Below, one piece after another: positions 1,317 to 23,874 of a stretch of 24,697 nucleotides of DNA (position 1 is the first letter of the stretch; each line of letters begins with the position of its first letter). Below the pieces are notes generated by a model that made no database searches, was not told the origin of the DNA, and saw nothing but the letters and a program-made list of their open reading frames with translations. The DNA comes from Patescibacteria group bacterium (GTDB lineage Bacteria > Patescibacteriota > Patescibacteriia > Patescibacteriales > UBA12465), in assembly GCA_022710685.1 (NCBI GenBank), contig JAKLGM010000016.1:1-24697 (forward strand). The letters are read 5' to 3'. The translations under genes and the position numbers were made by a program.

Positions 1317-2243
1317 TTAGCGCCCAAATTGATCCAAACTTGTGCTGGAACGCAAAAACTCCAGTAAAATAGCAGCTTGAGGATCATTGGCACTGGCGGT
1401 TTCTTGCTCTAAATCACTGATAAAAGAAGCTTTTAGGTCTGGATAGCGCTCTAGGAGGCTAATGAAGTCCGGTGCCGGTGCTGGCGGCAGGTCATTGCCC
1501 TTCCCGGCCTTATTAGACCCAGGGCGATTAAAGAATTCTCGGCCCGGGGCCAAGGGCATAACCTCGGTCGCGGTAAATTGATTAACGCTATTTTGCTTTC
1601 CGACAAAACGGGCCGGTTCGCCCACGCGGATGATAGATTGAAATTTTTCATTTTGAAGCTCCAACAACAAATCCCATTCAGACCGATCCATATCCACCAA
1701 GATAAAATGATTTTCCGCCACCCGCGTCTTTACCATCCCGGACAAGCGGCCCTCGGAGGGGTCAGACCAGAAGCGCAAACGCGGATTAATAACCTGCTCA
1801 TAAAAAGGAGCGCGCCGACCCAAAATATCATCAATCTTCTGGCTCAAACCCAAGGCATAGAATATTCCACCTAAAATGATGCTAGCGCCGACAGCGGCTA
1901 GAATGATAGACCAAGCCGGATAACGATAACCCTTCTTGGTCTTTTTAAATTCATAATAAATAACTACCAAGAAGAGACCAAGACAGATTATCCAAAAGAA
2001 AGGCACGAGCAGCAAAATTGATTCCACTGGATTGTGACCCGGCCGGGCATAAAGCCGCCAATCATCTGACTGGACCATATAAATGATAAGGGCCATAGCC
2101 AAAGAACCTAAGAGCAAAGACAGGCCGCCGAAAAACCACAAGACATAATTCTTGGCTAAAAATTGCCAGCGCGGACGAGGCAGAATTTTCTCTTCCTTAA
2201 TTTTATCCAAGAGGACTTGGTCAAATTTTTCATTACTAATCAT
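1317..2243 (-). CDS. Membrane protein encoded immediately downstream of an ECF sigma factor; candidate anti-sigma factor
   Basis: 308-aa ORF with a short cytoplasmic N-terminus (MISNEKFDQVLLDKIKEEKILPRPRW), about 4 hydrophobic helices, and a ~170-aa C-terminal soluble domain. Its start lies 5 nt after the sigma-gene stop, so the pair is co-transcribed. Genomic context, not sequence similarity, suggests the anti-sigma role. Confidence 0.7.
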   Translation of the reverse strand: MISNEKFDQVLLDKIKEEKILPRPRWQFLAKNYVLWFFGGLSLLLGSLAMALIIYMVQSDDWRLYARPGHNPVESILLLVPFFWIICLGLFLVVIYYEFKKTKKGYRYPAWSIILAAVGASIILGGIFYALGLSQKIDDILGRRAPFYEQVINPRLRFWSDPSEGRLSGMVKTRVAENHFILVDMDRSEWDLLLELQNEKFQSIIRVGEPARFVGKQNSVNQFTATEVMPLAPGREFFNRPGSNKAGKGNDLPPAPAPDFISLLERYPDLKASFISDLEQETASANDPQAAILLEFLRSSTSLDQFGR

Positions 2244-2248
2244 ATGAT

Positions 2249-2833
2249 TTATATTTTTATATTATTCTTTTCAATTGATGCTTTGAACTCCTTCTTCGCC
2301 TGGTTCAACATGGAGCCGACCGTCCCGACCGGCTTCTTGATAATATCAGAAATCTCCTGATAGTTCTTCTCTTCCAAGAACTTCAACACTAGAACCTCGC
2401 GGTACTTGGCCGGCAGCTCATCTAATATCTTCTGGACTTTTTCAGCCAGATAAGCGCTATCAACTCCGGCCGCAATATCAAAACCTGAGGCTAGGCGGCG
2501 AGCGGCTTCGCTGTCAATTCCGACTTGATGCCCCTCGGGCCGAACCCGAAGCTTGCGATAATTGCTGATTATCTGATTATGGGCGATAGCATAAGCCCAA
2601 GAAGAAAACTTGAGGCCGGAATCAAAGTCATTGAGATTAAGATATATTTTCAAAAAGATTTCTTGCAGCAGATCCTCAGCATCCTCTGGCGAAATATTAC
2701 TTAAGCGGCGGATATAGGTAAAAAGGCGGAGTTTATAACGTTGAATAATAAAAGCAAAATCAGCCTGGTTCTCCAGGCTCAAAGCCACTAATTCCGCATC
2801 GGACATTTTTTCTGCCGCCGCCCAATCAATCAT
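2249..2833 (-). CDS. RNA polymerase sigma factor, ECF (sigma-70 group 4) family
   Basis: Region 2 (EDAEDLLQEIFLKIYLNLNDFD..FSSWAYAIAHNQIISNYRK) and region 4 (LPAKYREVLVLKFLEEKNYQEISDIIKKPVGTVGSMLNQAKKEF) are present. The track ORF runs to 2956, but its first 41 aa look like a non-coding extension. Start chosen at the ATG at 2833 (MIDWAAAEKMSDAEL), with 2806 as an alternative. A TATAAT lies 16 nt upstream of 2833. Confidence 0.8.
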   Translation of the reverse strand: MIDWAAAEKMSDAELVALSLENQADFAFIIQRYKLRLFTYIRRLSNISPEDAEDLLQEIFLKIYLNLNDFDSGLKFSSWAYAIAHNQIISNYRKLRVRPEGHQVGIDSEAARRLASGFDIAAGVDSAYLAEKVQKILDELPAKYREVLVLKFLEEKNYQEISDIIKKPVGTVGSMLNQAKKEFKASIEKNNIKI

Positions 2834-2949
2834 AGAATTATCGTTCTGATTATAATACGTAATTTGGAATAAATCATTCAAAAAGCAAAATGCCGGATAA
2901 ATAGCATTGATTAAGGAAATTATAGCAAAAACGGAATAGGAGATAAATC

Positions 2950-2978
2950 TTGACAATAATCAGTCTAAGCCATATACT
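2950..2978 (+). promoter_or_regulatory. Sigma-70-type promoter for marR-greA (TTGACA, 17 bp, TATACT) in the divergent intergenic region
   Basis: TTGACA at 2950-2955, a 17-nt spacer, and TATACT at 2973-2978. This sits about 30 nt upstream of the marR ATG at 3008. Confidence 0.4.
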
Positions 2979-3007
2979 TGATATGTGAAGTAATTAACTA
3001 TAATAAT

Positions 3008-3415
3008 ATGGACAAAAACCTCTCATTTTTCTTTGAATTAGCTAAAGCCGACACCATCCTGGCTCGCCGCCTAAGCAGCCATGGCATGAGCTTTTCCGAA
3101 TTCACCATCCTCTATCACCTGAACCAAGCTCCGGAGCAAAAGCTGCGCCGCATTGATTTGGCCGAGCATTTAGGGCTAAGCGCTTCCGGCATTACCCGGA
3201 TACTATTGCCGATGGAAAAGATTGGCTTGATTGAAAGAGACCTAAGCGAAACTGACGGCCGCGCCCGTTATGCCAAGCTAACTAAAGCTGGAAAGAATTT
3301 TCTAGACGAAGCCGAGCAGAACATCAACAACAAGATTGAAGATCTGATCCAACCGGAAGAAGGCCAACAAATCGCCGCCCTCACTAAACTACTAACCGCT
3401 ATCAGCGGCCGCTAA
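3008..3415 (+). CDS. MarR-family transcriptional regulator
   Basis: Winged-HTH signature (LRRIDLAEHLGLSASGITRILLPMEKIGLIERDLSETDGRARYAKLTKAGKNFL). Start taken at MDKNLSF rather than the upstream in-frame ATG at 2978, which lies inside the promoter elements. Confidence 0.85.
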   Translation: MDKNLSFFFELAKADTILARRLSSHGMSFSEFTILYHLNQAPEQKLRRIDLAEHLGLSASGITRILLPMEKIGLIERDLSETDGRARYAKLTKAGKNFLDEAEQNINNKIEDLIQPEEGQQIAALTKLLTAISGR

Positions 3416-3417
3416 TT

Positions 3418-3918
3418 ATGCAAGTCCCTACTCGCCGCGCCGACAAAATTCCGCGCGCCAAATCCGACCCACATCTGACAGCGGAAAAATTCTTGGAGCT
3501 AAAGAACCGTTGTGAGCGTTTGATTAACTTCAGCCGGCCTCAAGCCGCTGAAGAAGTTAAGCGACTGGCTCTCATGGGTGACTTCTCGGAAAATGCCGGC
3601 TACCAATTAGCCAAGAGCCGCCTGCGCGGCATCAACAACCGGATCACGGAAATGGAAGACTTGATGAAACGGGCGATAATAATAGACCCGAACCAGAATA
3701 ATGACCAAATTCGATTAGGCCACCTGGTTACTTTGGAAATAAATGGCCGGACAAAACAATATCGAATATTGGGGTCAGCTGAAACCAACCCCACCAGCGG
3801 CATCATCTCTCATAATTCCCCGCTTGGCGCCGCCCTTATACACAAATCAGTCGGGGAAAAGGTGACTATAAAGGCTGGAGACAAAATAGTGGAGTATAAG
3901 ATTATAAAGATTGAATAA
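3418..3918 (+). CDS. greA: Transcription elongation factor GreA
   Basis: GreA/GreB N-terminal coiled coil with the FSENAGY motif, and the C-terminal FKBP-like domain (ISHNSPLGAALIHKSVGEKV). Starts 2 nt after the marR stop, so the two form an operon. Confidence 0.9.
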   Translation: MQVPTRRADKIPRAKSDPHLTAEKFLELKNRCERLINFSRPQAAEEVKRLALMGDFSENAGYQLAKSRLRGINNRITEMEDLMKRAIIIDPNQNNDQIRLGHLVTLEINGRTKQYRILGSAETNPTSGIISHNSPLGAALIHKSVGEKVTIKAGDKIVEYKIIKIE

Positions 3919-3920
3919 AA

Positions 3921-3950
3921 AAAGACCCGGATTAATCCGGGTCTTTAATA
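3921..3950. terminator. Bidirectional rho-independent terminator between convergent greA and the helicase gene
   Basis: Hairpin AGACCCGG-attaa-CCGGGTCT (3923-3944), flanked by an A-run on the plus side. On the minus strand it is followed by TTTTTTTATT. Confidence 0.75.
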
Positions 3951-3958
3951 TCTCAAAC

Positions 3959-5377
3959 CTAACGGGAAAATCTATTATTAGGACGCTGCCGGCGCGAGCC
4001 TGGTTTGCGGCCGCCAAATTTTCCAGAAGAAAACGGCCGGCTCTGACCTGCTCCTGATTTGTAGGTAGAAACGACCGGTCTTTGGGAACGAGAAGAAAAC
4101 TTAGACCGAGCCTTGAAATTGCCCTTCTTTTTTAGAGTATTACCGGTATTTTCGTAATATTTAGAAAAATCCGGGGCTGAGCTTTGACGGCTGCGGGAAC
4201 GACCCTGATAACCACTAACAATCTTGGATTTCGGCAGCGCCACCTCCTGAACTGAACCGATCTTAGTCACCGGCAGACTCTTCCGAATCAAGCGTTCAAT
4301 CTTCTGAATTTCCCGCCGTTGTTCCGGTAAAGCGAACGAAATCGCTCGACCGCCTTTGCCCGCTCGCGCGGTCCGGCCGATACGATGGACATAATCCTCG
4401 GAGTTGTCAGGTAAGTCAAAATTAAGGACGACTTCAATATCATTGATATCTAAACCACGAGCCGCAACGTCAGTCGCCACCAAGATCCGATGGCTGCCAC
4501 TCTTGAAGCTAGCTAATGAGGCCTTACGTTGGTTGAAAGACAAGTTAGAATGAATCTCACTGGCTTGATGGCCGTTCATTTTCAACTTCTTGGCTAAATT
4601 GGAAGCGCCGTGCTTGGTGCGAACGAATATCAAGACTAACTTTTTGTAATCAGCTAATATTTTTTCTAGAGAATCAAAACGATCCTCCCGCCGGATCAGA
4701 TAGATTTCTTGGTCCACTAATTCGGCCGTAGTTCCGGCCGGAGCCACTTCAATCTGAAGCGGTGAAGACAAATGACGTTCAGCCAAACGGATGATAGCCG
4801 CCGGCATCGTGGCCGAGAATAATAATGTCTGCCGGGTATTAGGAGTCAGCTTGATAATTTCTTCAATCTGCGGCGCAAACCCCATATCAAACATCATGTC
4901 AGCTTCATCTAAAACTAAAATAGCAGTCTGACCCAAACGGATAGTCCCCCGCTTGATATGATCTAATAATCTGCCCGGAGTAGCGATAATGATGTGAGGA
5001 TTACGGCGCAAAGCGAACAATTGACGATTAATGGCTTCGCCGCCGATAACAGCGACGGTGCGCAAGCCTAAATCCTTGCCGACTTTTCTCAAACTTTCCT
5101 CTACTTGGACTGCCAATTCCCTGGTCGGCAACAATACTAAAGCCTGGCCTTTGACGCTAGCTAAACGCTGAATGGTGGGAATACCAAAGGCTAGAGTCTT
5201 GCCGGTACCGGTCTGAGCCACACCGATTAAATCCTTACCCGAAATAGCCACAGGAATAGCCTTGGCTTGAATCGGAGTCGGAGTTTCTAGCCCGATTTTC
5301 TTGAGAATCGCTAAAATTGAGGGCTTTATCCCTAAACTCTGGAAACTCGCTTTCTTTTTTTCTAATTCATTGGACAT
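3959..5377 (-). CDS. DEAD-box ATP-dependent RNA helicase (RhlE/DeaD-like) with a basic RG/S-rich C-terminal tail
   Basis: Q-motif/Walker A (TPTPIQAKAIP..AQTGTGKT), DEAD (VLDEADMMFDMGF), SAT, HRIGRTARAG, and an arginine/serine-rich tail. The track ORF begins with a GTG at 5410, which is unlikely to be the real start. The ATG at 5377 (MSNELEKKKASFQSLGIKPSIL) matches canonical helicase N-termini. Confidence 0.9.
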   Translation of the reverse strand: MSNELEKKKASFQSLGIKPSILAILKKIGLETPTPIQAKAIPVAISGKDLIGVAQTGTGKTLAFGIPTIQRLASVKGQALVLLPTRELAVQVEESLRKVGKDLGLRTVAVIGGEAINRQLFALRRNPHIIIATPGRLLDHIKRGTIRLGQTAILVLDEADMMFDMGFAPQIEEIIKLTPNTRQTLLFSATMPAAIIRLAERHLSSPLQIEVAPAGTTAELVDQEIYLIRREDRFDSLEKILADYKKLVLIFVRTKHGASNLAKKLKMNGHQASEIHSNLSFNQRKASLASFKSGSHRILVATDVAARGLDINDIEVVLNFDLPDNSEDYVHRIGRTARAGKGGRAISFALPEQRREIQKIERLIRKSLPVTKIGSVQEVALPKSKIVSGYQGRSRSRQSSAPDFSKYYENTGNTLKKKGNFKARSKFSSRSQRPVVSTYKSGAGQSRPFSSGKFGGRKPGSRRQRPNNRFSR

Positions 5378-5388
5378 AAAAAAAATAA

Positions 5389-5410
5389 GTGACCCGATTT
5401 CTGCGGTCAC
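5389..5410 (-). terminator. Terminator-like hairpin (GTGACC-n10-GGTCAC) plus T-run, abutting the helicase ATG
   Basis: On the minus strand the hairpin is followed by TTATTTTTTTTT and then directly by the ATG at 5377. It lies about 145 nt downstream of the Fic stop. The stem is only 6 bp, so this is a weak call. Confidence 0.3.
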
Positions 5411-5554
5411 CTACGAAATGACTAAAAATTCGAATCTTTCTTTAACTTTGCTTTATATGAGCTACCATAACATAAAACTTTAATTTAAGCAAGCGAGGTA
5501 TTGTCTTGGCACCATAAACAGCAATAGCCCACGAATCAATTTTTGCGAAAAACA

Positions 5555-6901
5555 TTAAAACAGCTCCTTTATCTTACTGGTGCCATAATAATATATATTG
5601 CGTCCCTTTTTTATCGGGCGCAAAAAACCTTTCTGAACCAGAATATTAAGGTCCTTACCGGCCGTCATTTTAGTTATTTGATAAATATTCATGTGCATCT
5701 TCTGGGTTGTTCTCTCCTCTTGGTCACCCGACAAATAGCGCAAAAGATATATCTGCCTTTCGTTTAATTTATACTTTAATTCACCGGCCTTTTTCATCCT
5801 TATGTTGCCCCAAGATTCTTTTTCTAAATATTCAGAAAAATCCCGGACAGCTAACTTTATTTTTCTGATATTATAATCGATAAAATAGGTCAGATCATTA
5901 TCATCTTGTTCGGAATAAACATAAGCCATCTTATATTGGTTAGGGGACTTTTTAATTATTTTAGAAATCGGTAGGTAGACAAAAGCCCAATATCCCTTTC
6001 TGATCAGATACCAATAGAATAGCAAGCGCGCCAACCGGCCATTACCATCGGTGAAAGGATGGAGGTAGCCCAACCAAAAATGAAGCATGATAGCCTTAAT
6101 AACCGGATGGACAAAAGAATCGGTCTCCAGCTCGTCATTAGCAAAGTTTATCAGTAATTTCAATTCTTTATTAACAAAATCAACCTTGGGTGCTTCATGA
6201 TAAATATTACCCGAAGCTTTATCTATAACATAAATATTATCCTTGTCAGTTCTTAGCCTAGGCCGATCGCCTTCGTCATCCTTCGTTTCATTGGTAATCA
6301 TTCGATGCAACTCCAAAAGCAAGGGCAAGCTCATTTTTTCATTTTTGTACTTTTCTTCAATCTCTCGCATAGACAAATAGCTGTTGACTATCATCTGTTC
6401 TGAGGCATTTCTCGGCTTCCGGCCATCACGCAACATTCTCTTCGCTACTTGCCGGCTAGTAGCAGCCCCCTCCAACTGGGAAGAAGCGATAGCCTCTTCC
6501 ATAATTCCTCGGGAAATCAATTTTTGCTTATTTTGCTTATCAATATCAGATTTACGAACAAATAATTCACCTCCGGTATTCATGTCTATTTCATGAAAAA
6601 ATTCTTCTAAGCAGGGAATTTTAATCCATTTAAAATTATCGCCTGATTTATTCTTAATAGGAGACTTTATGCTTTGCGATCCCCTGACAATTTTGACCAA
6701 TTTCCATAGCTCCTCTTTGGTAATCCCGACCGGAGCGGGCTCTTTGTATTTAACATTATCCCAATAAATATATTCCGGCTCAAAAGTCTTTTTCACAAAA
6801 TCAAAGATTATCTCTTTGTTTCTGCTATTTTCAGAGAGAGACTGAATTAGATTTCTTTCTTTAATTTTGGATAAATCTGGCTTTTTCAACTCAAAATACA
6901 T
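5555..6901 (-). CDS. Fic/Doc-family protein (probable AMPylase) with an N-terminal auto-inhibitory helix and a C-terminal winged HTH
   Basis: Canonical Fic motif HPFTDGNGRLARLL (HxFx[DE]GNGRxxR). Upstream inhibitory motif SSQLEG ([ST]xxxE[GN]), as in class II Fic proteins. C-terminal wHTH-like segment (ERQIYLLRYLSG...ITKMTAGKDLNILVQKGFL). The gene is markedly more AT-rich than its neighbours. Confidence 0.9.
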   Translation of the reverse strand: MYFELKKPDLSKIKERNLIQSLSENSRNKEIIFDFVKKTFEPEYIYWDNVKYKEPAPVGITKEELWKLVKIVRGSQSIKSPIKNKSGDNFKWIKIPCLEEFFHEIDMNTGGELFVRKSDIDKQNKQKLISRGIMEEAIASSQLEGAATSRQVAKRMLRDGRKPRNASEQMIVNSYLSMREIEEKYKNEKMSLPLLLELHRMITNETKDDEGDRPRLRTDKDNIYVIDKASGNIYHEAPKVDFVNKELKLLINFANDELETDSFVHPVIKAIMLHFWLGYLHPFTDGNGRLARLLFYWYLIRKGYWAFVYLPISKIIKKSPNQYKMAYVYSEQDDNDLTYFIDYNIRKIKLAVRDFSEYLEKESWGNIRMKKAGELKYKLNERQIYLLRYLSGDQEERTTQKMHMNIYQITKMTAGKDLNILVQKGFLRPIKKGRNIYYYGTSKIKELF

Positions 6902-6910
6902 ATATTTATA

Positions 6911-6943
6911 AATAGGTATAATTATACTTAAATTATACCTATT
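6911..6943. promoter_or_regulatory. 13-bp perfect inverted repeat (AATAGGTATAATT-n7-AATTATACCTATT) 10 nt upstream of the Fic start codon; candidate operator overlapping -10-like TATAAT elements
   Basis: Read directly from the sequence. Both arms contain TATAAT when read on the minus strand. It lies in the divergent region between the Fic gene and the ABC-F gene. Confidence 0.4.
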
Positions 6944-6988
6944 TTATACCATTTGTCAATATAGGCACATTTATGCTTAAATTAATCT

Positions 6989-8737
6989 ATGTCTATTCTT
7001 CTGCAAGCCAACAACTTGAGTAAAAGCTATAGCGGCCAGAATATTTTTTCCGGCCTGACTTTTACCGTTTCCTCCCGCCAGAAAATCGGCGTCATCGGCC
7101 GCAATGGGGCCGGCAAGTCCACCTTGTTCCGCATTCTGACCGGAACCGAGACTGCTGACACCGGCGAAATCATGATTGGCAGCTCTACCCGGATCGGCTA
7201 TCTCAAGCAAGAAGAATCATACCAAGAGTCCGAAAGCGCCCTGGATTATCTGCGCCGGGAAAGCGGCCGCGAAGACTGGGTGATAAAAAAGCTGGCGGCT
7301 AAATTCCAGCTAACCGAAAATAAACTAGAGCAAGCAGCCAGTTCTCTTTCTGGCGGTTGGCGCATGCGCCTAAAACTAAGCGCTATGCTCCTCTTAGAAC
7401 CAAATCTCTTTCTCTTGGACGAACCGACCAACTACCTTGATCTCAATACCCTGCTCCTTTTAGAAAACTACCTTCAATCATATAAAGGTAGCTTCTTGAT
7501 AATTTCCCACGACCGAGAATTTCTCAAACGGACCTGCCAGGAAACTTTAGATATCTCCTCTCAAAGCTGCTATCACTATGCCGGTAATATTGAAGCCTAT
7601 CTAGCTTTCAAAGAACAGAAGCTAACGACCCTAATGAAAGCTAACGCCAGCTTGGACCGCCAACAGAAACACATGCAGGAATTTGTGGACCGTTTTCGGG
7701 CCAAAGCTTCCAAGGCTAAGCAAGCTCAATCTCTGATTCGGAAGATAAATAAGATGGAGCAGAAAAGGATTACCATCGAACACCGCGCCGGCATCACCAG
7801 AATCAGCATTCCGCCGACCATCAAACGACAAAATTTTGCCCTTCGGACTAATAACCTGGTAATCGGCTATGACGGCCGGGCAATAGTCTCTAATATTGAT
7901 TTTGATTGCCGCTCTGGCGAAAAAATCGCTATCCTAGGTCTAAACGGCCAAGGAAAAACTACCCTAATCAAAACCCTGACCGGAGATCTGCCGCTAGTTT
8001 CCGGCTCTTTTCGCTGGCTAACCGGCACCAAAATCGCCTATCACGGCCAAGAGGTCATAAATTCCTTAAACGACAAAGAGAATGTCGGCGACTTTCTGCG
8101 CCGCCAAGCCTCAAGCGATGTCAAAACCGAAGCAGTCTTGAAAATGGCCGGAGATTTTCTTTTTCGCGACGAAGAACTAAAAAAACCTATTGGCGTCTTG
8201 TCCGGCGGCGAAAGATCCCGCTTGGTATTAGCTGGCCTGCTCTTGTCCAAGCCCGATGTCTTCGTTCTGGATGAGCCAACCTGCCATTTAGATTTTGAGA
8301 CTACTGAAGCCTTGGGCGCGGCCTTGGGGAAATTCAACGGCACCGTGCTATTTGCCAGCCATGACCGGACCTTTACCAATCTTTTGGCTACCGGCTTAGT
8401 GGAGATAAAAAATGGAGAAGCTAAACGACGAACTGAAAGCTATCAAGAATATGTAGATGAGCTAGAAAAACAATTGGAGCAAGAAGTCCAAGATAGAAAT
8501 GACGGCAAAGAAAAAAATTCCGCCGCCAGAGATAAATATCTAATACAAAAAGAGCGGCAGAAAAAAATCAGGAAGATTGAAAAAGAGCTAGAGCAGAATA
8601 AGGCACGAGAAAAACAGCTGACCGACTACTTCCTCAAAAACACTTCCAGCTATGATGCCGCTAAAATTAAAGAGCTGACGGAAACCAAAGAAAAAATCAA
8701 ACAAGGCGAAGAAGACTGGCTAGAACTCAATGTCTAA
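6989..8737 (+). CDS. ABC-F family ATPase (two tandem ABC domains, no transmembrane domain; EttA/Uup-like ribosome-associated factor) with a K/E-rich C-terminal coiled coil
   Basis: First domain: Walker A GRNGAGKST, signature LSGGWRMRL, Walker B LLDEPTNYLD. Second domain: GLNGQGKTT, LSGGERSRL, VLDEPTCHLD. Inter-domain linker of about 80 aa. Charged C-terminal tail. Confidence 0.9.
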   Translation: MSILLQANNLSKSYSGQNIFSGLTFTVSSRQKIGVIGRNGAGKSTLFRILTGTETADTGEIMIGSSTRIGYLKQEESYQESESALDYLRRESGREDWVIKKLAAKFQLTENKLEQAASSLSGGWRMRLKLSAMLLLEPNLFLLDEPTNYLDLNTLLLLENYLQSYKGSFLIISHDREFLKRTCQETLDISSQSCYHYAGNIEAYLAFKEQKLTTLMKANASLDRQQKHMQEFVDRFRAKASKAKQAQSLIRKINKMEQKRITIEHRAGITRISIPPTIKRQNFALRTNNLVIGYDGRAIVSNIDFDCRSGEKIAILGLNGQGKTTLIKTLTGDLPLVSGSFRWLTGTKIAYHGQEVINSLNDKENVGDFLRRQASSDVKTEAVLKMAGDFLFRDEELKKPIGVLSGGERSRLVLAGLLLSKPDVFVLDEPTCHLDFETTEALGAALGKFNGTVLFASHDRTFTNLLATGLVEIKNGEAKRRTESYQEYVDELEKQLEQEVQDRNDGKEKNSAARDKYLIQKERQKKIRKIEKELEQNKAREKQLTDYFLKNTSSYDAAKIKELTETKEKIKQGEEDWLELNV

Positions 8738-11686: not shown

Positions 11687-13192
11687 CTATTGATAATTTC
11701 CTAGCTGATCGGTTTTCATTAAATAAATATCATTATCATTAACATCAGACGAACCAGAGATAATATAGCCGCCATCTGAGGTCTGCTGGATGCTGGCAAA
11801 ATCGATATTTCCGAGGGCTATTTCAGTCTGAGCCCAGGTTAACACTCCGGCAGAATCAGTTTTGACCAAATAAAAATCAGAATCAGTGACATGAGTCTGG
11901 CCGGCTATAATATAGCCACCATCGGCTGTTTGATCAACGGAATAAGCGTCCTGACTATTAGTACCACCGATGCTCTGCTCCCAAGTGACGTTGCCGCTAG
12001 AATCAGTTTTGACTAAATAGACGTCACCATCATTAGCATTAGTACTGCCAGTAATAATATAGCCTCCATCAGTTGTTTGTTGGACAGCCCGTCCGGATTG
12101 AACATCGGCACCACCTATATTCTGCTCCCAAGTGACGTTGCCGCTAGAATCAGTTTTAACCAAGTAAACGTCCCAATCATTAGCATCGGACAAACCAGAG
12201 ATAATATAGCCGCCATCAGCTGCCTGCTGGACAAAACTGCCCGTTTGATAGCCGACACCGCCGATATTCTGCTCCCAAGTGACGTTGCCGCTAATATCGG
12301 TTTTCACTAAATAGACATCATTGTCGTGAACATCAGTATTGCCGGCTATAATATAACCACCATCGGCTGTTTGATCAACGGAATAAGCGTCCTGACTATT
12401 AGTACCACCGATGCTCTGATCCCAAGTAACATTGCCGCTAGAATCAGTTTTAACTAAGTAAACATTAGAATCAGAACCGGTCGCATCATCAATGCCAACG
12501 ATAATATAACCGCCGTCAGTTGTTTGCTGGACGACTCCCGCTTCCTGATAGCCAGCGCCACCGATTTCTTGGTGCCAGGATTCTATTCCATTAGAATCCA
12601 CTTTCAATAAATACATATTGCCATTAGGATCGCTGGCATAGCTGGCGCCAGAAATAATATAACCACCGTCTGATGTTTGATCAACAGAAGCAGATGTTTG
12701 GTTGCCTGGACCGCCATACAGCAAAGCAAACATTGCCAAGGAGGAACAATCTACATCCATAATACCGGCCGGGGTAAGACATTTGGGACCACTATCTAGG
12801 GTGCCAGTAGTGTTACCCAAACAGAAAGAGACGGTATAAGAATTACCATTTTCGGTCTGTTGGTAAGAGAAAGTGTTTTGGCCGGATGTGCAAGAGCCAT
12901 CAACCGGAGTCGGAGCCGAAGGGATAATCTGCATATAAGTCGAGGTGCCGTAGGTAGAAGTAGAAAAAATAGAGCCAGAAGCAAACTCCTCCGCTGTCGG
13001 ATAGCGGTTTTTATCATTAAAAAATAATTCCAAGGCGGTCTGAACCTGTTTCATATCACCCGCCCTTCTCGCATCTCGGGCTTTAGCCCGCGCGCTGGAT
13101 AAAGCTATGACTGAAACCGTGGCGATAACGCCGATAATGGCGATAACCACCAGAAGCTCTATTAAAGTGAAGGCTTTTTTTAACCTAAACAT
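11687..13192 (-). CDS. Type IV pilin-like protein (prepilin N-terminal methylation-site/TM helix) fused to ~7 tandem SBBP-like beta-propeller repeats
   Basis: N-terminus MFRLKKAFTLIELLVVIAIIGVIA (class III signal). Conserved pilin head (SAPTPVDGSCTS..FCLGNTTGTLDSGPKCLTP). Then repeats of about 49 aa (DGGYII.G.....D.YLVKTDSSGNVTWEQ.IGG.....S..QT.). The DNA carries near-exact ~110-bp copies 441 bp apart. Confidence 0.85.
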   Translation of the reverse strand: MFRLKKAFTLIELLVVIAIIGVIATVSVIALSSARAKARDARRAGDMKQVQTALELFFNDKNRYPTAEEFASGSIFSTSTYGTSTYMQIIPSAPTPVDGSCTSGQNTFSYQQTENGNSYTVSFCLGNTTGTLDSGPKCLTPAGIMDVDCSSLAMFALLYGGPGNQTSASVDQTSDGGYIISGASYASDPNGNMYLLKVDSNGIESWHQEIGGAGYQEAGVVQQTTDGGYIIVGIDDATGSDSNVYLVKTDSSGNVTWDQSIGGTNSQDAYSVDQTADGGYIIAGNTDVHDNDVYLVKTDISGNVTWEQNIGGVGYQTGSFVQQAADGGYIISGLSDANDWDVYLVKTDSSGNVTWEQNIGGADVQSGRAVQQTTDGGYIITGSTNANDGDVYLVKTDSSGNVTWEQSIGGTNSQDAYSVDQTADGGYIIAGQTHVTDSDFYLVKTDSAGVLTWAQTEIALGNIDFASIQQTSDGGYIISGSSDVNDNDIYLMKTDQLGNYQ

Positions 13193-13288
13193 AAAAACCT
13201 GTTAATTTGTTATCTTCTAGCGCCGCTATAGGCAATAGCTCGAACGATATTCCAAGCCAAAGAGTTAAAGCCATAAATAAAATCAAGT

Positions 13289-15070
13289 TTATTCTATGAT
13301 ATAAGGGCCATAAACATTCAAGTTGGTGGCGGAGCTAGTCAAGCTCAATCCTGTCCCCGAAAGAGCACCTGCTTGGCTAGAAATATTGGGATCAGTTATA
13401 TCTAAATTACTGTCAACAACGGTCGGGGCGTAAGGAGAAACTGTAAAAATAGAGGAAGCTGAGCCAGTATCGCTAGAAACAAAATTCGGCTTTATTTTCA
13501 TAAACCCAGCGCTACTGCCAAAAATAGTTCCTCCTAGATCATCATACTCATCAAGATAAGAGCCAATATACAAATCTGGACCATCAGCCCAGCAAACATA
13601 GCCTTCTTCATACCCCCAAGTATCAAGATTCCTCTCACGAATTACCTCGCTACCCATCAAAGATAGATCATTCCGATTAATACTAGTCACCCAGATATCG
13701 CCACTGCCATCATTGGAAGACCCGGTATAACCAACACCATAAATCGAGCCCCCGGAAAGACAGAGGGAGCCAAAATAATCCAATGCCGAACCGCCATAAA
13801 TCTTCCTGCCTAAAAGGCTGAGGTCTGATTTATCAAATTTTAATATTACAGCACTGCGGCCGCCCGGACCCTCTCCGATAATCTGGCCATAAGCATAATA
13901 ATAGTCGCTATCAATAGCTCCCCTAAATCCCTGAAAAAAAGTAATTCCGGAACGGCCATAAGCATTCTCCGCTTCAACCGCCATCGTAGTTTTGTTAATC
14001 TTTAGGGCGACCAAAGGGCTATTTCCAAGAACGGCGGATAAATACAAATAATTACCATCGGAAGCCAATGATCTGATATTGCTAGCATAAGAATTTTGCT
14101 TAATCAAATTTAAATCAAAATCATAAACCATCACCGTGTTATCAATCCCGACATATAAGTAACTATCATCCTTAGCTATACTATATATATAATTTAAGCT
14201 GCCGTTACCAAGACTTAAAGCCGAAACCAACGATAAATCGGATTTATTAAATTTTGCCAGAACTCCATCTTGACTGCTGATATTACGATTGATAATTCCC
14301 GCCGCATAAATATAATTACCCTGCTCAACAATGGCATGAAAATAATCTTTACCGGTGCCACCATAAATTCTTTTAGCTGCTATAGTCAAATCTGTTTTAT
14401 CATATTTAATAATCATTCCATCGGTCTGGCCGGCGCCCTCAGATCCGTTATCGCCAACGGCATAAATATACTGAGAATCTGAAGTCAAGTCATATATTTC
14501 CTTGTTGGTTGAATCAGTATTCCCATAAATCTGGGCAAAGAAAAAATTATCCTTTAGAACACACGAACCAGACTGACAGGCATAACCATAATCGCAGGTC
14601 GGATCGCAAGGAACGGAACTGGCGCTACAATCTAAATCTAAAATTCCACCTGGGGTAAGACATTTGGGGCCACTATCTAAGGTGCCAGTAGTATTGCCTA
14701 AACAGAAAGAAATAGTATAGGAATTACCGTTCTCAGTTTGGGTATAATAAAAACTATTTTGGTCGGAAGTACAGCTTCCGTCTACTGGGGTCGGAGCGGA
14801 AGGGATAATCTGCATATAAGTAGAAGTACCGTAGGTAGAAGTAGAAAAAATTGACCCTAGGGCAAATTCTTCCATAGTGGGATAACGGTTTTTGTCGTTG
14901 AAAAATAACTCTAGGGCTGTTTGAATCTGCTTCATATCACCCGCTCTTTTAGCATCGCGGGACTTAGCTCGGGCGTTTTGAAGGGCAATGATAGAAATAG
15001 TGGCTAAAACGCCAATAATAGCGATAACTACCAACAACTCAATGAGAGTAAAAGCGCGCTTGATCTTCAT
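13289..15070 (-). CDS. Type IV pilin-like protein, paralog of the preceding gene, with a different C-terminal beta-propeller-like repeat domain
   Basis: N-terminus MKIKRAFTLIELLVVIAIIGVLA. Its first ~150 aa are nearly identical to those of gene 11687-13192. This is followed by a Cys-rich linker (CSASSVPCDPTCDYGYACQSGSCV) and YIY..G/KxDLSL repeat units. Confidence 0.85.
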   Translation of the reverse strand: MKIKRAFTLIELLVVIAIIGVLATISIIALQNARAKSRDAKRAGDMKQIQTALELFFNDKNRYPTMEEFALGSIFSTSTYGTSTYMQIIPSAPTPVDGSCTSDQNSFYYTQTENGNSYTISFCLGNTTGTLDSGPKCLTPGGILDLDCSASSVPCDPTCDYGYACQSGSCVLKDNFFFAQIYGNTDSTNKEIYDLTSDSQYIYAVGDNGSEGAGQTDGMIIKYDKTDLTIAAKRIYGGTGKDYFHAIVEQGNYIYAAGIINRNISSQDGVLAKFNKSDLSLVSALSLGNGSLNYIYSIAKDDSYLYVGIDNTVMVYDFDLNLIKQNSYASNIRSLASDGNYLYLSAVLGNSPLVALKINKTTMAVEAENAYGRSGITFFQGFRGAIDSDYYYAYGQIIGEGPGGRSAVILKFDKSDLSLLGRKIYGGSALDYFGSLCLSGGSIYGVGYTGSSNDGSGDIWVTSINRNDLSLMGSEVIRERNLDTWGYEEGYVCWADGPDLYIGSYLDEYDDLGGTIFGSSAGFMKIKPNFVSSDTGSASSIFTVSPYAPTVVDSNLDITDPNISSQAGALSGTGLSLTSSATNLNVYGPYIIE

Positions 15071-18060: not shown

Positions 18061-18477
18061 CTAGGCGCCGACTATATTCCCTAAAATAAATCTGACAGCA
18101 GCGTAAGAAGTAAAAATGATAACCAAACCAATCGCCGCCCACATCAGAATATCTCTACCCTGAGCTATCTTCTTTTCATTGCCGGCCGCCATCATCCAAA
18201 CTAAGCCGCCCCAGATAAACATCAATAAAGCCACCGAGCCTAAGACGCCCAAGATAGCGCTAATAATCTTACCAATTAGTTGCTGGAAGGTGCTGACGCC
18301 CAAAGGATTATCTATGGAAACCGGAGTGCCATAACTAGCCATAACGTCAGAGCTATTATTCTCATTACTAACAGCACCACTAATTCCGCCCGCAACCCCG
18401 CCTTGCGCCAAGGCCGAAGTGGCCGCCAAAAGTAGAAAGGCCAGAAAGATAATGGGAATAATAATTTTTTTAGTCAT
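18061..18477 (-). CDS. Small secreted two-helix membrane protein, TrbC/VirB2-like (T4SS-pilin-like) family; paralog 1
   Basis: Signal peptide MTKKIIIPIIFLAFLLLAATSALA. G/S-rich variable region. Conserved NPLGVSTFQQLIGKIISAILGVLGSVALLMFIWGGLVWMMAAGNEKKIAQGRDILMWAAIGLVIIFTSYAAV two-helix hairpin. The track ORF starts 5 codons earlier at a TTG. The ATG at 18477 is preferred. Confidence 0.7.
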   Translation of the reverse strand: MTKKIIIPIIFLAFLLLAATSALAQGGVAGGISGAVSNENNSSDVMASYGTPVSIDNPLGVSTFQQLIGKIISAILGVLGSVALLMFIWGGLVWMMAAGNEKKIAQGRDILMWAAIGLVIIFTSYAAVRFILGNIVGA

Positions 18478-18501
18478 ATTTTTGTAAAACAAAATAATTA
18501 A

Positions 18502-18960
18502 TTAAGCGCCGATAACATCGCTGATCAGGAACTTGACGGCGGCATAAGAGGTAAAGACAACCGCCATGCCAATAGCCGCCCAGATCAAAATATCACGACC
18601 CTGGGAAACCTTTTTCTCATTACCAGCGGCTGTCATCCAAATGAAACCGCCATAGATGAACATCAAGAGCGCAATAGTACCGATAATGCCTAAGACGGCG
18701 CTGATGATTTTACCAACCAACTGTTGCGGCTTAGTAACCGTGCCCAAGGGATTGGTAAAGGTAACGCTGGACCGTTCAGTGCTCTTTTCTGCTTTAGTGG
18801 TAGTGCACATTACCTGCGGTGTAGCCCCAACCATTACAGTTATCTGCTCCTGCCCCTCCGGACAAGTCCCAGAAGTCCCAGATTGGGCTAAGGCCAAGGG
18901 AGCAATGAAAAAAGATACAAAAGCTAAAAAAGAAACAGAAATGATAGTTTTTCTAAGCAT
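18502..18960 (-). CDS. Small secreted two-helix membrane protein, TrbC/VirB2-like (T4SS-pilin-like) family; paralog 2
   Basis: Signal peptide MLRKTIISVSFLAFVSFFIAPLALA. Cys-containing variable region. Conserved NPLGTVTKPQQLVGKIISAVLGIIGTIALLMFIYGGFIWMTAAGNEKKVSQGRDILIWAAIGMAVVFTSYAAV. The same TTGTTTTACAAAAAT-ATG leader as paralog 1. Confidence 0.7.
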   Translation of the reverse strand: MLRKTIISVSFLAFVSFFIAPLALAQSGTSGTCPEGQEQITVMVGATPQVMCTTTKAEKSTERSSVTFTNPLGTVTKPQQLVGKIISAVLGIIGTIALLMFIYGGFIWMTAAGNEKKVSQGRDILIWAAIGMAVVFTSYAAVKFLISDVIGA

Positions 18961-19014
18961 ATTTTTGTAAAACAAGAGAATTAATAACTACTTATATTAA
19001 ACCATATTTTGGGA

Positions 19015-21667: not shown

Positions 21668-22357
21668 CTATCTAAAGAATCTTTCCCTTATCAAGGTCTT
21701 AAGGGCCAAAATCCCATCTTTGGCTTTTATCTTTTTACCCTCGCGGTATCCTCGACGAAAATAACTAATAGGTAGTTCTTTAATCTTATAGCCATTTTTT
21801 AATAGTTGCGCTGTAATTTCTGGCTCAATCTCAAATCGACCACCGCTCAAATTCAATTTTGGCAGGGCGGCTGATGGTATCAGCTTAAAACAAGTCTCCA
21901 TATCTGTTAAATGAGATTTAAACAAAAAATTAGTAAAACCAGTCAGAAACTTATTAACAAAATAATGGAAGACTAGCGGTTTTTTATTTAAAAAACGCGA
22001 GCCATAAAAAGCGCTATTACTATCGTCTTCTTTCTCCGCTTCCAAAAATAATTTTATAATATCAACTGGATCATATTCCAAATCAGCGTCACAAACTATA
22101 AAATAATCTCCCCTAATCTCTTCCAGGCCGCGCTTAATAGCGACTCCCTTGCCTTTATTAGTAGGCTGAGTTATCAACTTAAACGCATGTTGATACCTTG
22201 GGTCACTCAAGATTCTACCAGTAGCATCGGTCGACCCATCATTAACTACAACAATCTCCTTATTGATTTCCAGGTCTAAAACTGACTGCAAAGAAGCCGC
22301 CACTACTTTTTCTTCGTTATAAACCGGGATAATAATTGATAATAACTTTCCGGGCAT
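21668..22357 (-). CDS. Family 2 glycosyltransferase, polyprenyl-phosphate sugar synthase type (DPM1/ArnC-like)
   Basis: LSIIIPVYNEE ... VVVNDGSTD ... IVCDADLEYDP (DXD motifs) in about 229 aa. Starts 5 nt after the upstream GT-C gene stop. Confidence 0.85.
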   Translation of the reverse strand: MPGKLLSIIIPVYNEEKVVAASLQSVLDLEINKEIVVVNDGSTDATGRILSDPRYQHAFKLITQPTNKGKGVAIKRGLEEIRGDYFIVCDADLEYDPVDIIKLFLEAEKEDDSNSAFYGSRFLNKKPLVFHYFVNKFLTGFTNFLFKSHLTDMETCFKLIPSAALPKLNLSGGRFEIEPEITAQLLKNGYKIKELPISYFRRGYREGKKIKAKDGILALKTLIRERFFR

Positions 22358-22362
22358 AAAAG

Positions 22363-23874
22363 CTAATTAGCTGGCTCAAAACCTAGTCGCACTAAATCTT
22401 CTGGCTGAGGTCGAAGATGAACTAGATAGCGACCACGAACCAAGGCAATATCACCCAAATTATATAGCTGGGAAAAGGAAGGCAATTGGTACCATAACCC
22501 CACCAAAGCGCAGTTATTATTTTGCTTATATTCTGAATCTACCACTACTGCATCTTGCGGCCGCCGGTTATCAATTTCCTGATGCCTAGCCATAACATCA
22601 GGGATAAAATAATCTACATGCTGACTTATTATCCAATCCGTAGCATAAACGCACTTGATATTATTTTGATTTAAAAATTTTTTCAAATATTCTATTCTCT
22701 CAACTTCCGTATAATTATCATTGATTTTAGCAAAAATGTAGTTATGAAAAATAGCGCCACAAATTAAAGAGAAAACGGAATAAACCATTAAAAACCAAAA
22801 TAAAACTCTCCTAAATATAGGGTGAGCGACTTGTTTCGCGGTTGAAACAATTAAAAATACGGCCGGGATAAAAAATGGCAGAAGATAACGATAGGAGAAT
22901 TCACGATCATTGTAAAAAAGCATGAAGATGACAAACAAAACAACAGAAAGTAAAATCGCCAGATTAATTTTCTTTAATTTTTTTACTGATAATAAATATA
23001 AACAAAAAAGAATTGCTAAAATGAAGATACCGATAAAAACCCCGCTGTTAAAAGAGGCCCAGGGGTTAAGTTTTAAACGGGAAACATCAAAAAACCTACC
23101 ACCATAACTAACATAATAATGGCTAATAATATTTTTAATATTTGAAGCTAGCTGCTCAAACCCCAATTTGTTCTGAGATTGATAGCTCTGGCCCAAAAAA
23201 TACAATAAAACCTTAGACCCCAAAAAAGCACCGATTAGGCTAGAGGCGAAAATCAAAACTGACTTAAAATTATAATTCACCAAAAAGTAATAGGCGGCTA
23301 AAGGAAGGGCGACCGGCAGCCACAAGGGTTGAGCGTAATAAATCAACACTAATAATACTCCTATAACTACTGACCGACAGTTATTCTTTTTAGAGACGGC
23401 CAACAGAAAAATTACGCTAGAGGCCAATAGGGCGGTTAAATATCCACCCCGGGCTTTAGTGGCCCAGTCAAACCAAGCCGGGACAGACGATGCAAAAAGA
23501 GTGGCCAGCAAGGCCCATTTTCGGCTATTAAATATTTTTTTGCCGGCATAATAAAGAACTATTATACTTGCCAGCCAAAGCAAAAGCATGGCTATTTTCA
23601 TGCTAAAAATATTGATACCAAAAAAGAACCCCAATATTGCTCCCAGTAGAACCTCAAAAGAAACAAAACCATAATTTTGACCAGAAAAAAATAATGGCAA
23701 ATCACCATTATTTAAAAAACCTTGAATCATGGTGCCAAATATTGCCTCATCGCCATCTATAAAAAATCCCTTATTTACAAAATAAGCGATCCGGGGTAAA
23801 GAGTTGAACAAAATTATCAAAATAATAAACAAGAAATCTTTGCTTTTTATAACTGTCAGAAACTTTTTAAACAT
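22363..23874 (-). CDS. Polytopic GT-C fold glycosyltransferase (ArnT/PMT-like, family 39/83-type)
   Basis: 503 aa, 11 or more TM helices, with an N-terminal periplasmic-loop acidic motif (FFIDGDEAIFG). Very AT-rich. In an operon with the GT2 gene. Confidence 0.75.
   Translation of the reverse strand: MFKKFLTVIKSKDFLFIILIILFNSLPRIAYFVNKGFFIDGDEAIFGTMIQGFLNNGDLPLFFSGQNYGFVSFEVLLGAILGFFFGINIFSMKIAMLLLWLASIIVLYYAGKKIFNSRKWALLATLFASSVPAWFDWATKARGGYLTALLASSVIFLLAVSKKNNCRSVVIGVLLVLIYYAQPLWLPVALPLAAYYFLVNYNFKSVLIFASSLIGAFLGSKVLLYFLGQSYQSQNKLGFEQLASNIKNIISHYYVSYGGRFFDVSRLKLNPWASFNSGVFIGIFILAILFCLYLLSVKKLKKINLAILLSVVLFVIFMLFYNDREFSYRYLLPFFIPAVFLIVSTAKQVAHPIFRRVLFWFLMVYSVFSLICGAIFHNYIFAKINDNYTEVERIEYLKKFLNQNNIKCVYATDWIISQHVDYFIPDVMARHQEIDNRRPQDAVVVDSEYKQNNNCALVGLWYQLPSFSQLYNLGDIALVRGRYLVHLRPQPEDLVRLGFEPAN

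Follow-up and report, generated by a model that had tools for sequence, protein, structure and literature searches.

A probable single-gene class II Fic cassette in a Patescibacteria group bacterium with a conserved operator array at its own promoter

A 24,697-nucleotide (nt) stretch of DNA from a Patescibacteria group bacterium (contig JAKLGM010000016.1 of assembly GCA_022710685.1) carries a gene, here called fic, that encodes a Fic protein of 448 amino acids (aa), and our analysis makes it probable that the region from about 5555 to 6960 is a self-contained cassette of promoter, operator, and this one open reading frame (ORF), which specifies a self-inhibited enzyme repressing its own synthesis and which is accessory and mobile. 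The whole stretch is referred to as the window, and all coordinates are counted from its first letter; fic lies at 5555..6901 on the minus strand. Class II Fic proteins with a C-terminal winged helix-turn-helix (wHTH) are a known kind of protein, of which the window protein is an uncharacterised member, and their targets and regulation have become known only recently, with EF-Tu for SoFic, FtsZ and autorepression for CccR, and DNA-gated activity for CbFic2. What appears to be new here, judged from comparative data, is a conserved operator of three direct boxes and one inverted box together with a simple two-residue/two-base specificity code. With a promoter, an operator architecture, and a specificity code available from such data, autoregulation and the coupling between DNA and enzyme become directly testable.

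The predicted sigma-70 promoter of fic (6932..6959, minus strand) matches the consensus at 12 of 12 positions, with the -35 element TTGACA at 6959-6954, a 16-nt spacer, and the -10 element TATAAT at 6937-6932. A perfect TTGACA was also found at 46 of 76 homologue loci when the region from -90 to -41 relative to the ATG was searched, mostly at -55 to -80. Between the TTGACA and the ATG of fic lies an array of boxes with a period of 10-11 bp (6902..6953, minus strand). Its three direct boxes read, in gene orientation, AATGGTATAA (6953-6944), ATAGGTATAA (6942-6933), and TTAAGTATAA (6931-6922), and they are followed by one inverted ATAGGTATAA box (6912-6921) and a weak fifth box (6902-6911), so that spacer, -10 element, and the start region predicted near 6925 all lie beneath the boxes. 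The first-pass annotation of this DNA had described a perfect 13-bp palindrome at the 5' end of the gene. The palindrome is present, but its arms are 14 bp long (AAATAGGTATAATT at 6910-6923 and AATTATACCTATTT at 6931-6944, with a 7-bp spacer), and its standing as a regulatory element was strengthened by the finding that it belongs to a promoter/operator array conserved in homologues. A supposed degenerate distal operator farther upstream in the window was rejected, as positions 6955-6988 are homologous to the native upstream region of the ABC-F gene in relatives.

The box layout can be written as [>>><]cTTGACAa[>>><], with the ATG about 10-15 nt further on and often with two clusters in the upstream regions of homologues, and it is common to homologues of Patescibacteria, Margulisiibacteriota, Gammaproteobacteria, and Armatimonadota. 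In the 200 nt upstream of 78 homologues, the density of the 7-mer AGGTATA is 9.2 per kb, compared with 0.064 per kb in the other 610 kb of these loci, a 144-fold difference. At least three periodic copies of a locus-specific 8-mer (9-12 bp spacing) were present in 80% of 74 loci and at least four copies in 54%, compared with 0.45% of 222 control windows and 0% of shuffles. It is therefore highly improbable that the palindrome and repeats bind no protein and represent only promoter sequence rich in AT, a hairpin of an RNA leader, or a repeat arisen by chance. Such an explanation would be in line with the -10-like TATAAT within the box, with the GC content of only 18% in the spacer upstream of the gene, and with the perfect palindrome made by the two inner boxes, which could fold as RNA. 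However, shuffles lack such arrays and control windows almost never contain them, and many homologue loci bear a second, distal array. Only one arm of the palindrome would be transcribed, since the predicted -10 element lies inside the upstream arm, and this counts against an RNA hairpin. The box sequences also shift in concert within a locus and covary with residues of the recognition helix.

This covariation was seen in the divergent members of the subfamily, where variant boxes occur and all copies in one locus (4-8 boxes per locus) change together. The variants follow residues 411 and 412, with which the predicted recognition helix of the C-terminal wHTH begins. K411 is found with AGGT in 29 of 33 loci and R411 with [A/G/C]TGT in 16 of 16; M, A, I, L, or T at 412 is found with GTATAA in 37 of 37 loci (43 of 45 with P and V added) and K412 with GTGTAA in 7 of 8, the single exception being a register error, all of these counts being uncorrected for phylogeny and the loci not independent. 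Four combinations of the two residues are found with matching boxes, namely KM with AGGTATAA, KK with AGGTGTAA, RM with ATGTATAA, and RK with ATGTGTAA. Other residue pairs occur as well, namely KN with GGTTCAA, KS with GGTGTCA, and [R/Q/V]V with TGTAAA. The two-by-two pattern and the concerted change of boxes would be difficult to account for if the wHTH did not read the boxes, and we infer that it most likely binds the four or five ATAGGTATAA boxes spaced by 11 bp. Since the array extends across the promoter spacer and the -10 element to the predicted start site, autorepression would be expected, and the comparative data argue for a Fic protein that represses its own promoter. DNA binding or autoregulation, which had been suggested from a wHTH-like domain, is thus the best-supported part of the earlier reading.

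A protein that reads DNA could also serve mainly to regulate the transcription of other genes; its Fic domain would then be a sensor or regulatory module, and the boxes at its own promoter would be one site of a larger regulon. The first deposition of SoFic (3eqx) indeed bears the name "Fic domain containing transcriptional regulator". We consider this unlikely. The two perfect ATAGGTATAA 10-mers of the 24.7-kb window are both in the fic promoter region, matches with up to two mismatches occur at chance level (35 observed versus 31 expected), and the core 7-mer is at background in the 610 kb of homologue flanks. Furthermore, the invariant catalytic and inhibitory motifs argue for selection on enzymatic activity, and a gene that moves between phyla together with its operator, as this one seems to do, is not readily integrated in host regulons.

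The enzyme that we propose to be under this control consists of a subfamily-specific N-terminal domain, a class II Fic core, and a C-terminal winged helix, an architecture based on the ORF, Pfam, PADLOC, and Foldseek. The complete catalytic motif noticed in the first-pass annotation is there: HPFTDGNGRLAR, running from H281 to R292 (nt 6026..6061, minus strand), is read directly in the 448-aa ORF and is invariant in 36 homologues. By homology, the protein would be competent for AMPylation. The profile search that had been proposed for three Pfam families gave a clear match to Fic (PF02661; E=1.4e-15, 58.3 bits versus a cut-off of 24) and weak matches to DUF4172 and Fic_N, both ending at an SSQLEG motif. 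This motif, S140-S-Q-L-E144-G145 (nt 6467..6484, minus strand), fits the [S/T]xxxE[G/N] consensus of the inhibitory helix, and the homologue alignment places it in a block, EEAIASSQLEGAATSR, that is invariant in the 36 homologues although these are themselves only 60-79% identical overall. A comparison with the Bordetella Fic structure 8uqu aligned SSQLEG gap-free, residue for residue, with SNRLEG, and the alignment runs on into the Fic core. The local alignment with CccR (7xux) begins at query aa 134 and chain position 53, and if its start is ungapped, as deduced from the coordinates, S140SQLEG would fall on S59ARIEG, the experimentally defined inhibitory motif of CccR (PMC9755527). The distance from the inhibitory E144 to the catalytic H281 is 137 residues, where the earlier annotation had given about 115, and resembles the distances in CbFic2 (139; PMC10628234) and CccR (129). 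The motif and the class II assignment drawn from it have thus stood, on the strength of its invariance, the 8uqu alignment, and the spacing, and only the number of residues had to be corrected.

An AlphaFold2 model was built from the 36 homologues, with a mean predicted local distance difference test (pLDDT) score of 81.5, and matched Fic structures in Foldseek with a probability of 1.00. The top matches in the PDB, SoFic, CbFic2, 4rgl, 7cb8, and CccR, are all class II Fic proteins, and among them SoFic, CbFic2, and CccR have a documented C-terminal winged helix. By sequence, the nearest solved structures are CbFic2 (8cil), the Mycobacterium marinum FIC protein (7cb8), FICD, SoFic, and CccR (7xux). 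The C-terminal wHTH of the window protein (aa ~367-445; 5567..5803, minus strand) was confirmed by its alignment with the CbFic2 wHTH, which extends through aa 436, and by the secondary structure of the model, with helices at 381-391, 400-407, and 411-423 and a beta-hairpin at 427-440; the recognition helix is aa 411-423 and starts K411-M412-T-A. The Pfam and NCBIfam winged-helix matches at aa 367-445 (SarA/Rot, DeoR, Lrs14, and ArsR) are weak.

The N-terminal domain (aa 1 to ~120; 6542..6901, minus strand) gave no match in profile searches of the PDB and Pfam, and an AlphaFold2 model confined to aa 1-122 was of low quality (pLDDT 60) and found no counterpart with Foldseek (best E=0.9). Its invariant residues in the 36 homologues include W47, D48, P55, P57, W66, K70, R73, F90, and W92, and further E99, H103, D106, M107, G110, and G111. 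Because it matches 146 clusters among 1.84 billion cluster representatives, nearly always at the N-terminus and in full-length members of ~430-470 aa, we regard this domain as the signature of the subfamily. It is a candidate for the trigger or the target recognition of the enzyme.

SoFic of Shewanella oneidensis (SO_4266; PDB 3eqx/3zcn) is the best fold match (Foldseek E=6e-10), and in both proteins a Fic core follows an N-terminal [S/T]xxxE[G/N] motif and precedes a C-terminal wHTH. SoFic binds DNA in front of its own gene (the first 100 bp upstream), and its AMPylation of EF-Tu needs dimerisation (10.64898/2026.07.09.737422); binding just upstream of its own gene is also what is predicted for the window protein. 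On the other hand, the two share only ~17% identity, the window protein has ~70-100 extra N-terminal residues, and no defined SoFic operator has been published. SoFic acts as a single-gene anti-phage system (10.1101/2022.05.11.491447; PMC12249575). The Sofic of E. coli H397 (EcSofic) differs in having a 47-aa downstream antitoxin, of which there is no conserved equivalent by the window gene.

CccR of Yersinia pseudotuberculosis (YPK_0951, 7xux) is likewise a class II protein with a helix-turn-helix at its C-terminus, and it autorepresses via inverted repeats/palindromes near the -35 and -10 of its own promoter (PMC9755527). Its operator, however, consists of two 10-bp half-sites 26 bp apart, in contrast to the three direct boxes and one inverted box with 11-bp spacing that are often duplicated in the subfamily described here. 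CccR is furthermore secreted by a type VI secretion system and AMPylates FtsZ, whereas the window gene has no secretion context, and CccR lacks the N-terminal extension. The best sequence match among solved structures is CbFic2 of Coxiella burnetii (CBU_0822, 8cil; E=1.8e-14 with a single sequence and 2.4e-19 with a profile), which shares the Fic core and the wHTH and whose activity is switched by DNA-induced dimerisation, with DNA binding through the wHTH controlling the balance of AMPylation and deAMPylation (PMC10628234). In that 378-aa protein, a DUF4172 dimerisation region is found where the window protein has its own N-terminal domain, the DNA binding is largely non-specific, and histone H3 was identified as the AMPylation target, the protein being nuclear when expressed in human cells.

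Metazoan FICD/HYPE is a class II Fic protein whose core aligns with that of the window protein (E ~3e-08) and whose inhibitory motif we take to precede the Fic motif by a similar distance. It differs in being a eukaryotic protein of the endoplasmic reticulum with TPR domains, a membrane anchor, and no wHTH, and in having BiP as its target. In FICD, the same glutamate represses AMPylation and supports deAMPylation (PMC6408439, PMC6826200). The class I proteins FicT and VbhT share the Fic AMPylase core and the inhibition by a glutamate-bearing helix, but in these the helix comes from a separate small antitoxin, whereas the window gene has it in the same polypeptide and has no conserved partner ORF. 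FicT toxins AMPylate GyrB/ParE.

By analogy with these proteins, Glu144 would keep ATP from binding productively in the HPFTDGNGRLAR active site and hold AMPylation low, and it may support deAMPylation, as in FICD, SoFic, and CbFic2. The winged helix would occupy the boxes over the gene's own promoter, and the resulting autorepression would keep the protein level low. Oligomerisation, possibly driven by DNA binding, probably sets the balance between AMPylation and deAMPylation on a cellular target, as SoFic and CbFic2 suggest, and AMPylation of a core cellular protein, if the characterised relatives are a guide, could lead to growth arrest. From these parallels, we infer that the role is most plausibly that of a toxin-like growth brake or of a SoFic-type abortive-infection defence. 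A more far-reaching version, which we put forward tentatively and with considerable doubt, is that K/R at 411 reads G/T and M/K at 412 reads A/G within an 11-bp box as a modular recognition code, that each mobile cassette would then recognise no array but its own, that cooperative assembly on this array of three direct boxes and one inverted box, besides repressing transcription, sets the oligomeric state by which the enzyme switches between deAMPylase and AMPylase, that the whole is a partner-free DNA-gated toxin or defence module, and that the N-terminal domain provides the trigger or target recognition. If true, a one-gene DNA-gated module would be spreading over Patescibacteria and other phyla without a partner gene.

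Several points, besides the shared ancestry behind the covariation counts, weigh against the picture of a self-inhibited, self-repressing Fic enzyme. The subfamily is uncharacterised so far and known from sequence alone, and the mean pLDDT of the AlphaFold2 model is only 59 for aa 141-150, where the inhibitory motif lies. The boxes include TATAAT, so part of their conservation could be due to promoter function, although promoter function leaves the inverted box, the distal cluster, and the covariation without explanation. The PADLOC SoFic anti-phage model matches aa 123-439 (E=5.9e-37), but the NCBIfam SoFic equivalog reaches only 36 bits versus a cut-off of 550, and the window protein must therefore be seen as a relative of SoFic and not an orthologue. 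For a defence role in particular, it is unfavorable that the neighbours of fic in the window are housekeeping genes and form no defence island and that only ~5% of homologue loci lie in type I restriction-modification (R-M) operons.

The self-contained nature of the cassette is evident from the context of the gene. At 78 homologue loci, no neighbouring family recurred beyond 5-6 loci, the 140 closest neighbours were spread over 184 Pfam families, and a conserved adjacent ORF, large or small, was not found in 75-78 loci. The inhibitory motif occurred in 10 of 551 adjacent small ORFs, which is chance level. The absence of a separate antitoxin gene, noted already in the first-pass annotation, is borne out at these loci. 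Against this stands a 37-aa ORF (MFFAKIDSWAIAVYGAKTIPRLLKLKFYVMVAHIKQS; 5442-5555, minus strand) that overlaps the stop codon of fic (TAATG) and was worth checking, as a 47-aa downstream antitoxin (AS1) has been reported for E. coli Sofic (PMC12249575). Were it an AS1-like antitoxin, the locus would be a two-gene toxin-antitoxin pair. The ORF was called by gene callers in all four metagenome contigs with an identical fic gene, its overlap with the stop codon suggests translational coupling, and EcSofic provides the precedent. However, a tblastn search of 75 homologue loci with the 37-aa peptide found nothing (best E=0.6), and same-strand ORFs of at least 25 aa starting from the fic stop are not enriched (55%, versus 65% at random positions). 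The nucleotide similarity to a cassette with a 79%-identical fic ends exactly at the stop codon, and in several loci, a large unrelated gene begins 8-17 nt past the stop. With no conservation in homologue loci, the 37-aa ORF was rejected as an antitoxin, and a toxin-antitoxin pair is very unlikely here.

The commonest neighbours of the homologues are type I R-M subunits, and about 4 of the 78 loci lie within type I R-M operons. In three loci (L012, L020, and L022, ~2200-7700 in each), fic is found between hsdS upstream and hsdR, inside such an operon; hsdR begins within ~17 nt after the fic stop and overlaps it in L020. IS110 transposases occur in three loci. At two loci, a second, unrelated Fic gene is located directly beside the homologue (L057, 4001-4460, with the motif HPFFEGNGRTAR; L008, 5759-6898, with STRIEGN in the second Fic protein). 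An apparent 2-kb match in L057 is not an insertion but consists of two adjacent, different Fic genes.

The subfamily is widespread among uncultured bacteria, and its distribution is broad and patchy. More than 4,487 hits came from a protein search, and the best 120 listed have 99-100% query coverage, lengths of about 444-459 aa, and 60-79% identity. At least 591 genomes encode a relative in a scan with one genome per species, and the best-matching genomes are mostly those of candidate-phyla-radiation bacteria. The best 80 loci (47-65% identity) are spread over many classes of Patescibacteria as well as Margulisiibacteriota, Gammaproteobacteria, Bdellovibrionales, Omnitrophota, Firestonebacteria, Armatimonadota, Planctomycetota, Zixibacteria, and Ignavibacteria. 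Carriage of close relatives by phages or plasmids was rejected: the phage collections contained no close relative, and only homologues with 32-38% identity were seen, on a few viral contigs and, with the N-terminal domain included, on plasmids of Klebsiella, Vibrio, and Aeromonas. One of these distant loci (L114, 3840-3886, on the Klebsiella pneumoniae plasmid pKp_SB617_1) has a 457-aa homologue with 33% identity, SSSQLEG, HPFSDGNGRTAR, and the N-terminal domain, and here a different palindrome, AACTCAATTTT-CGTC-AAAATTGAGTT, is found 6 nt (aagcgc) ahead of the start codon. This suggests that autoregulation may extend to distant members with other operator layouts.

That fic is an accessory and horizontally mobile gene is supported by comparison of genomes, namely by the patchy distribution over phyla among the best 80 loci, by the wholly different neighbourhood of the 79%-identical homologue, and by the absence of fic from the interval between GreA and ABC-F in the closest relatives. 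This interval (3418-6988 in the window; compared in L089, L092, L115, and L118) varies in its gene content among close relatives. Some of them have an HD hydrolase, VF530, an ArsP_2 permease, and a PIF1 helicase there, another has a small membrane protein along with two GNATs, and the window has the DEAD helicase and fic. An exact empty site was not found among relatives with a 66-79% identical ABC-F, which hold other genes in the interval and no fic. The limits of the cassette can be set at ~5555 and ~6955-6960 from the flanking homology, as the sequence from ~5497 downwards resembles the helicase promoter/leader of L092 and that of 6955-6988 belongs, as mentioned, to the ABC-F side.

In contrast, base composition does not speak for a transfer. 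The GC content is 0.369 for fic, 0.476 for the helicase gene, 0.467 for the ABC-F gene, 0.424 for the window, and 0.18 for the spacer upstream of fic. The windowed check confirmed the dip behind the earlier description of fic as far more AT-rich than its flanks, but the dip is only moderate: fic ranks third lowest of the 22 window genes (z=-1.86), and those that truly stand out in composition are two genes of 229 and 503 aa at 21668-23874 on the minus strand, with a GC content of 0.355-0.37 overall and 0.34-0.35 at third codon positions. The dip in fic is concentrated at codon positions 1 and 2 (0.41 and 0.285), and the synonymous codon usage of the gene is the least deviant of the 22 (0.117). 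Across the homologue loci, fic is AT-richer than its flanks in 68 of 72 (mean -6.8 points) and its GC content tracks that of the host (r=0.79). The AT-richness is a family-wide compositional trait and no evidence of recent transfer, and we accordingly rejected GC content and codon usage as signs of the horizontal acquisition that had been read from them. As a caution, GC content alone is insufficient to call this gene an island.

The first-pass annotation also had the gene bracketed at its 3' end by a hairpin with a U-tract. The hairpin and T-run are present, as GTGACC-N10-GGTCAC followed by T8 (5378-5410, minus strand), and fold as predicted, but the element abuts the helicase ATG at 5377 and does not belong to fic. 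It is kept upstream of the helicase gene in the relative L092 (2290-2330, minus strand), with an A-U to G-U change, and in that relative GreA and not fic lies upstream of the helicase; this conservation makes the hairpin a feature of the helicase leader. Together with the end of similarity between fic cassettes at the stop codon, it also led us to reject the hairpin as the terminator of fic. A terminator scanner made no call at the hairpin because its loop is longer than 8 nt, and the fold over the 191-nt hairpin region was no more stable than that of shuffles (z=-0.57). The hairpin is possibly an attenuator of the helicase gene and may incidentally stop read-through from fic.

The flanking genes are a DEAD-box helicase gene on the same strand and a divergent ABC-F gene (6989-8737, plus strand), whose product places the host near Candidatus Falkowbacteria, within Patescibacteria. 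Rfam and tRNA scans gave no match at the fic locus. Gene callers concur that the true start of the helicase is the ATG at 5377 on the minus strand; a long ORF listed with a GTG start at 5410 includes the leader hairpin, translated as "EIGSLIF[FY]M". Elsewhere in the window, a tandem pair of paralogues of 501 and 593 aa with type IV pilin-like N-termini (FTLIELLVVIAIIGV) is found at 11687-15070, and a tandem pair of small paralogues of 143 and 157 aa, both beginning LFYKNM, at 18061-18975.

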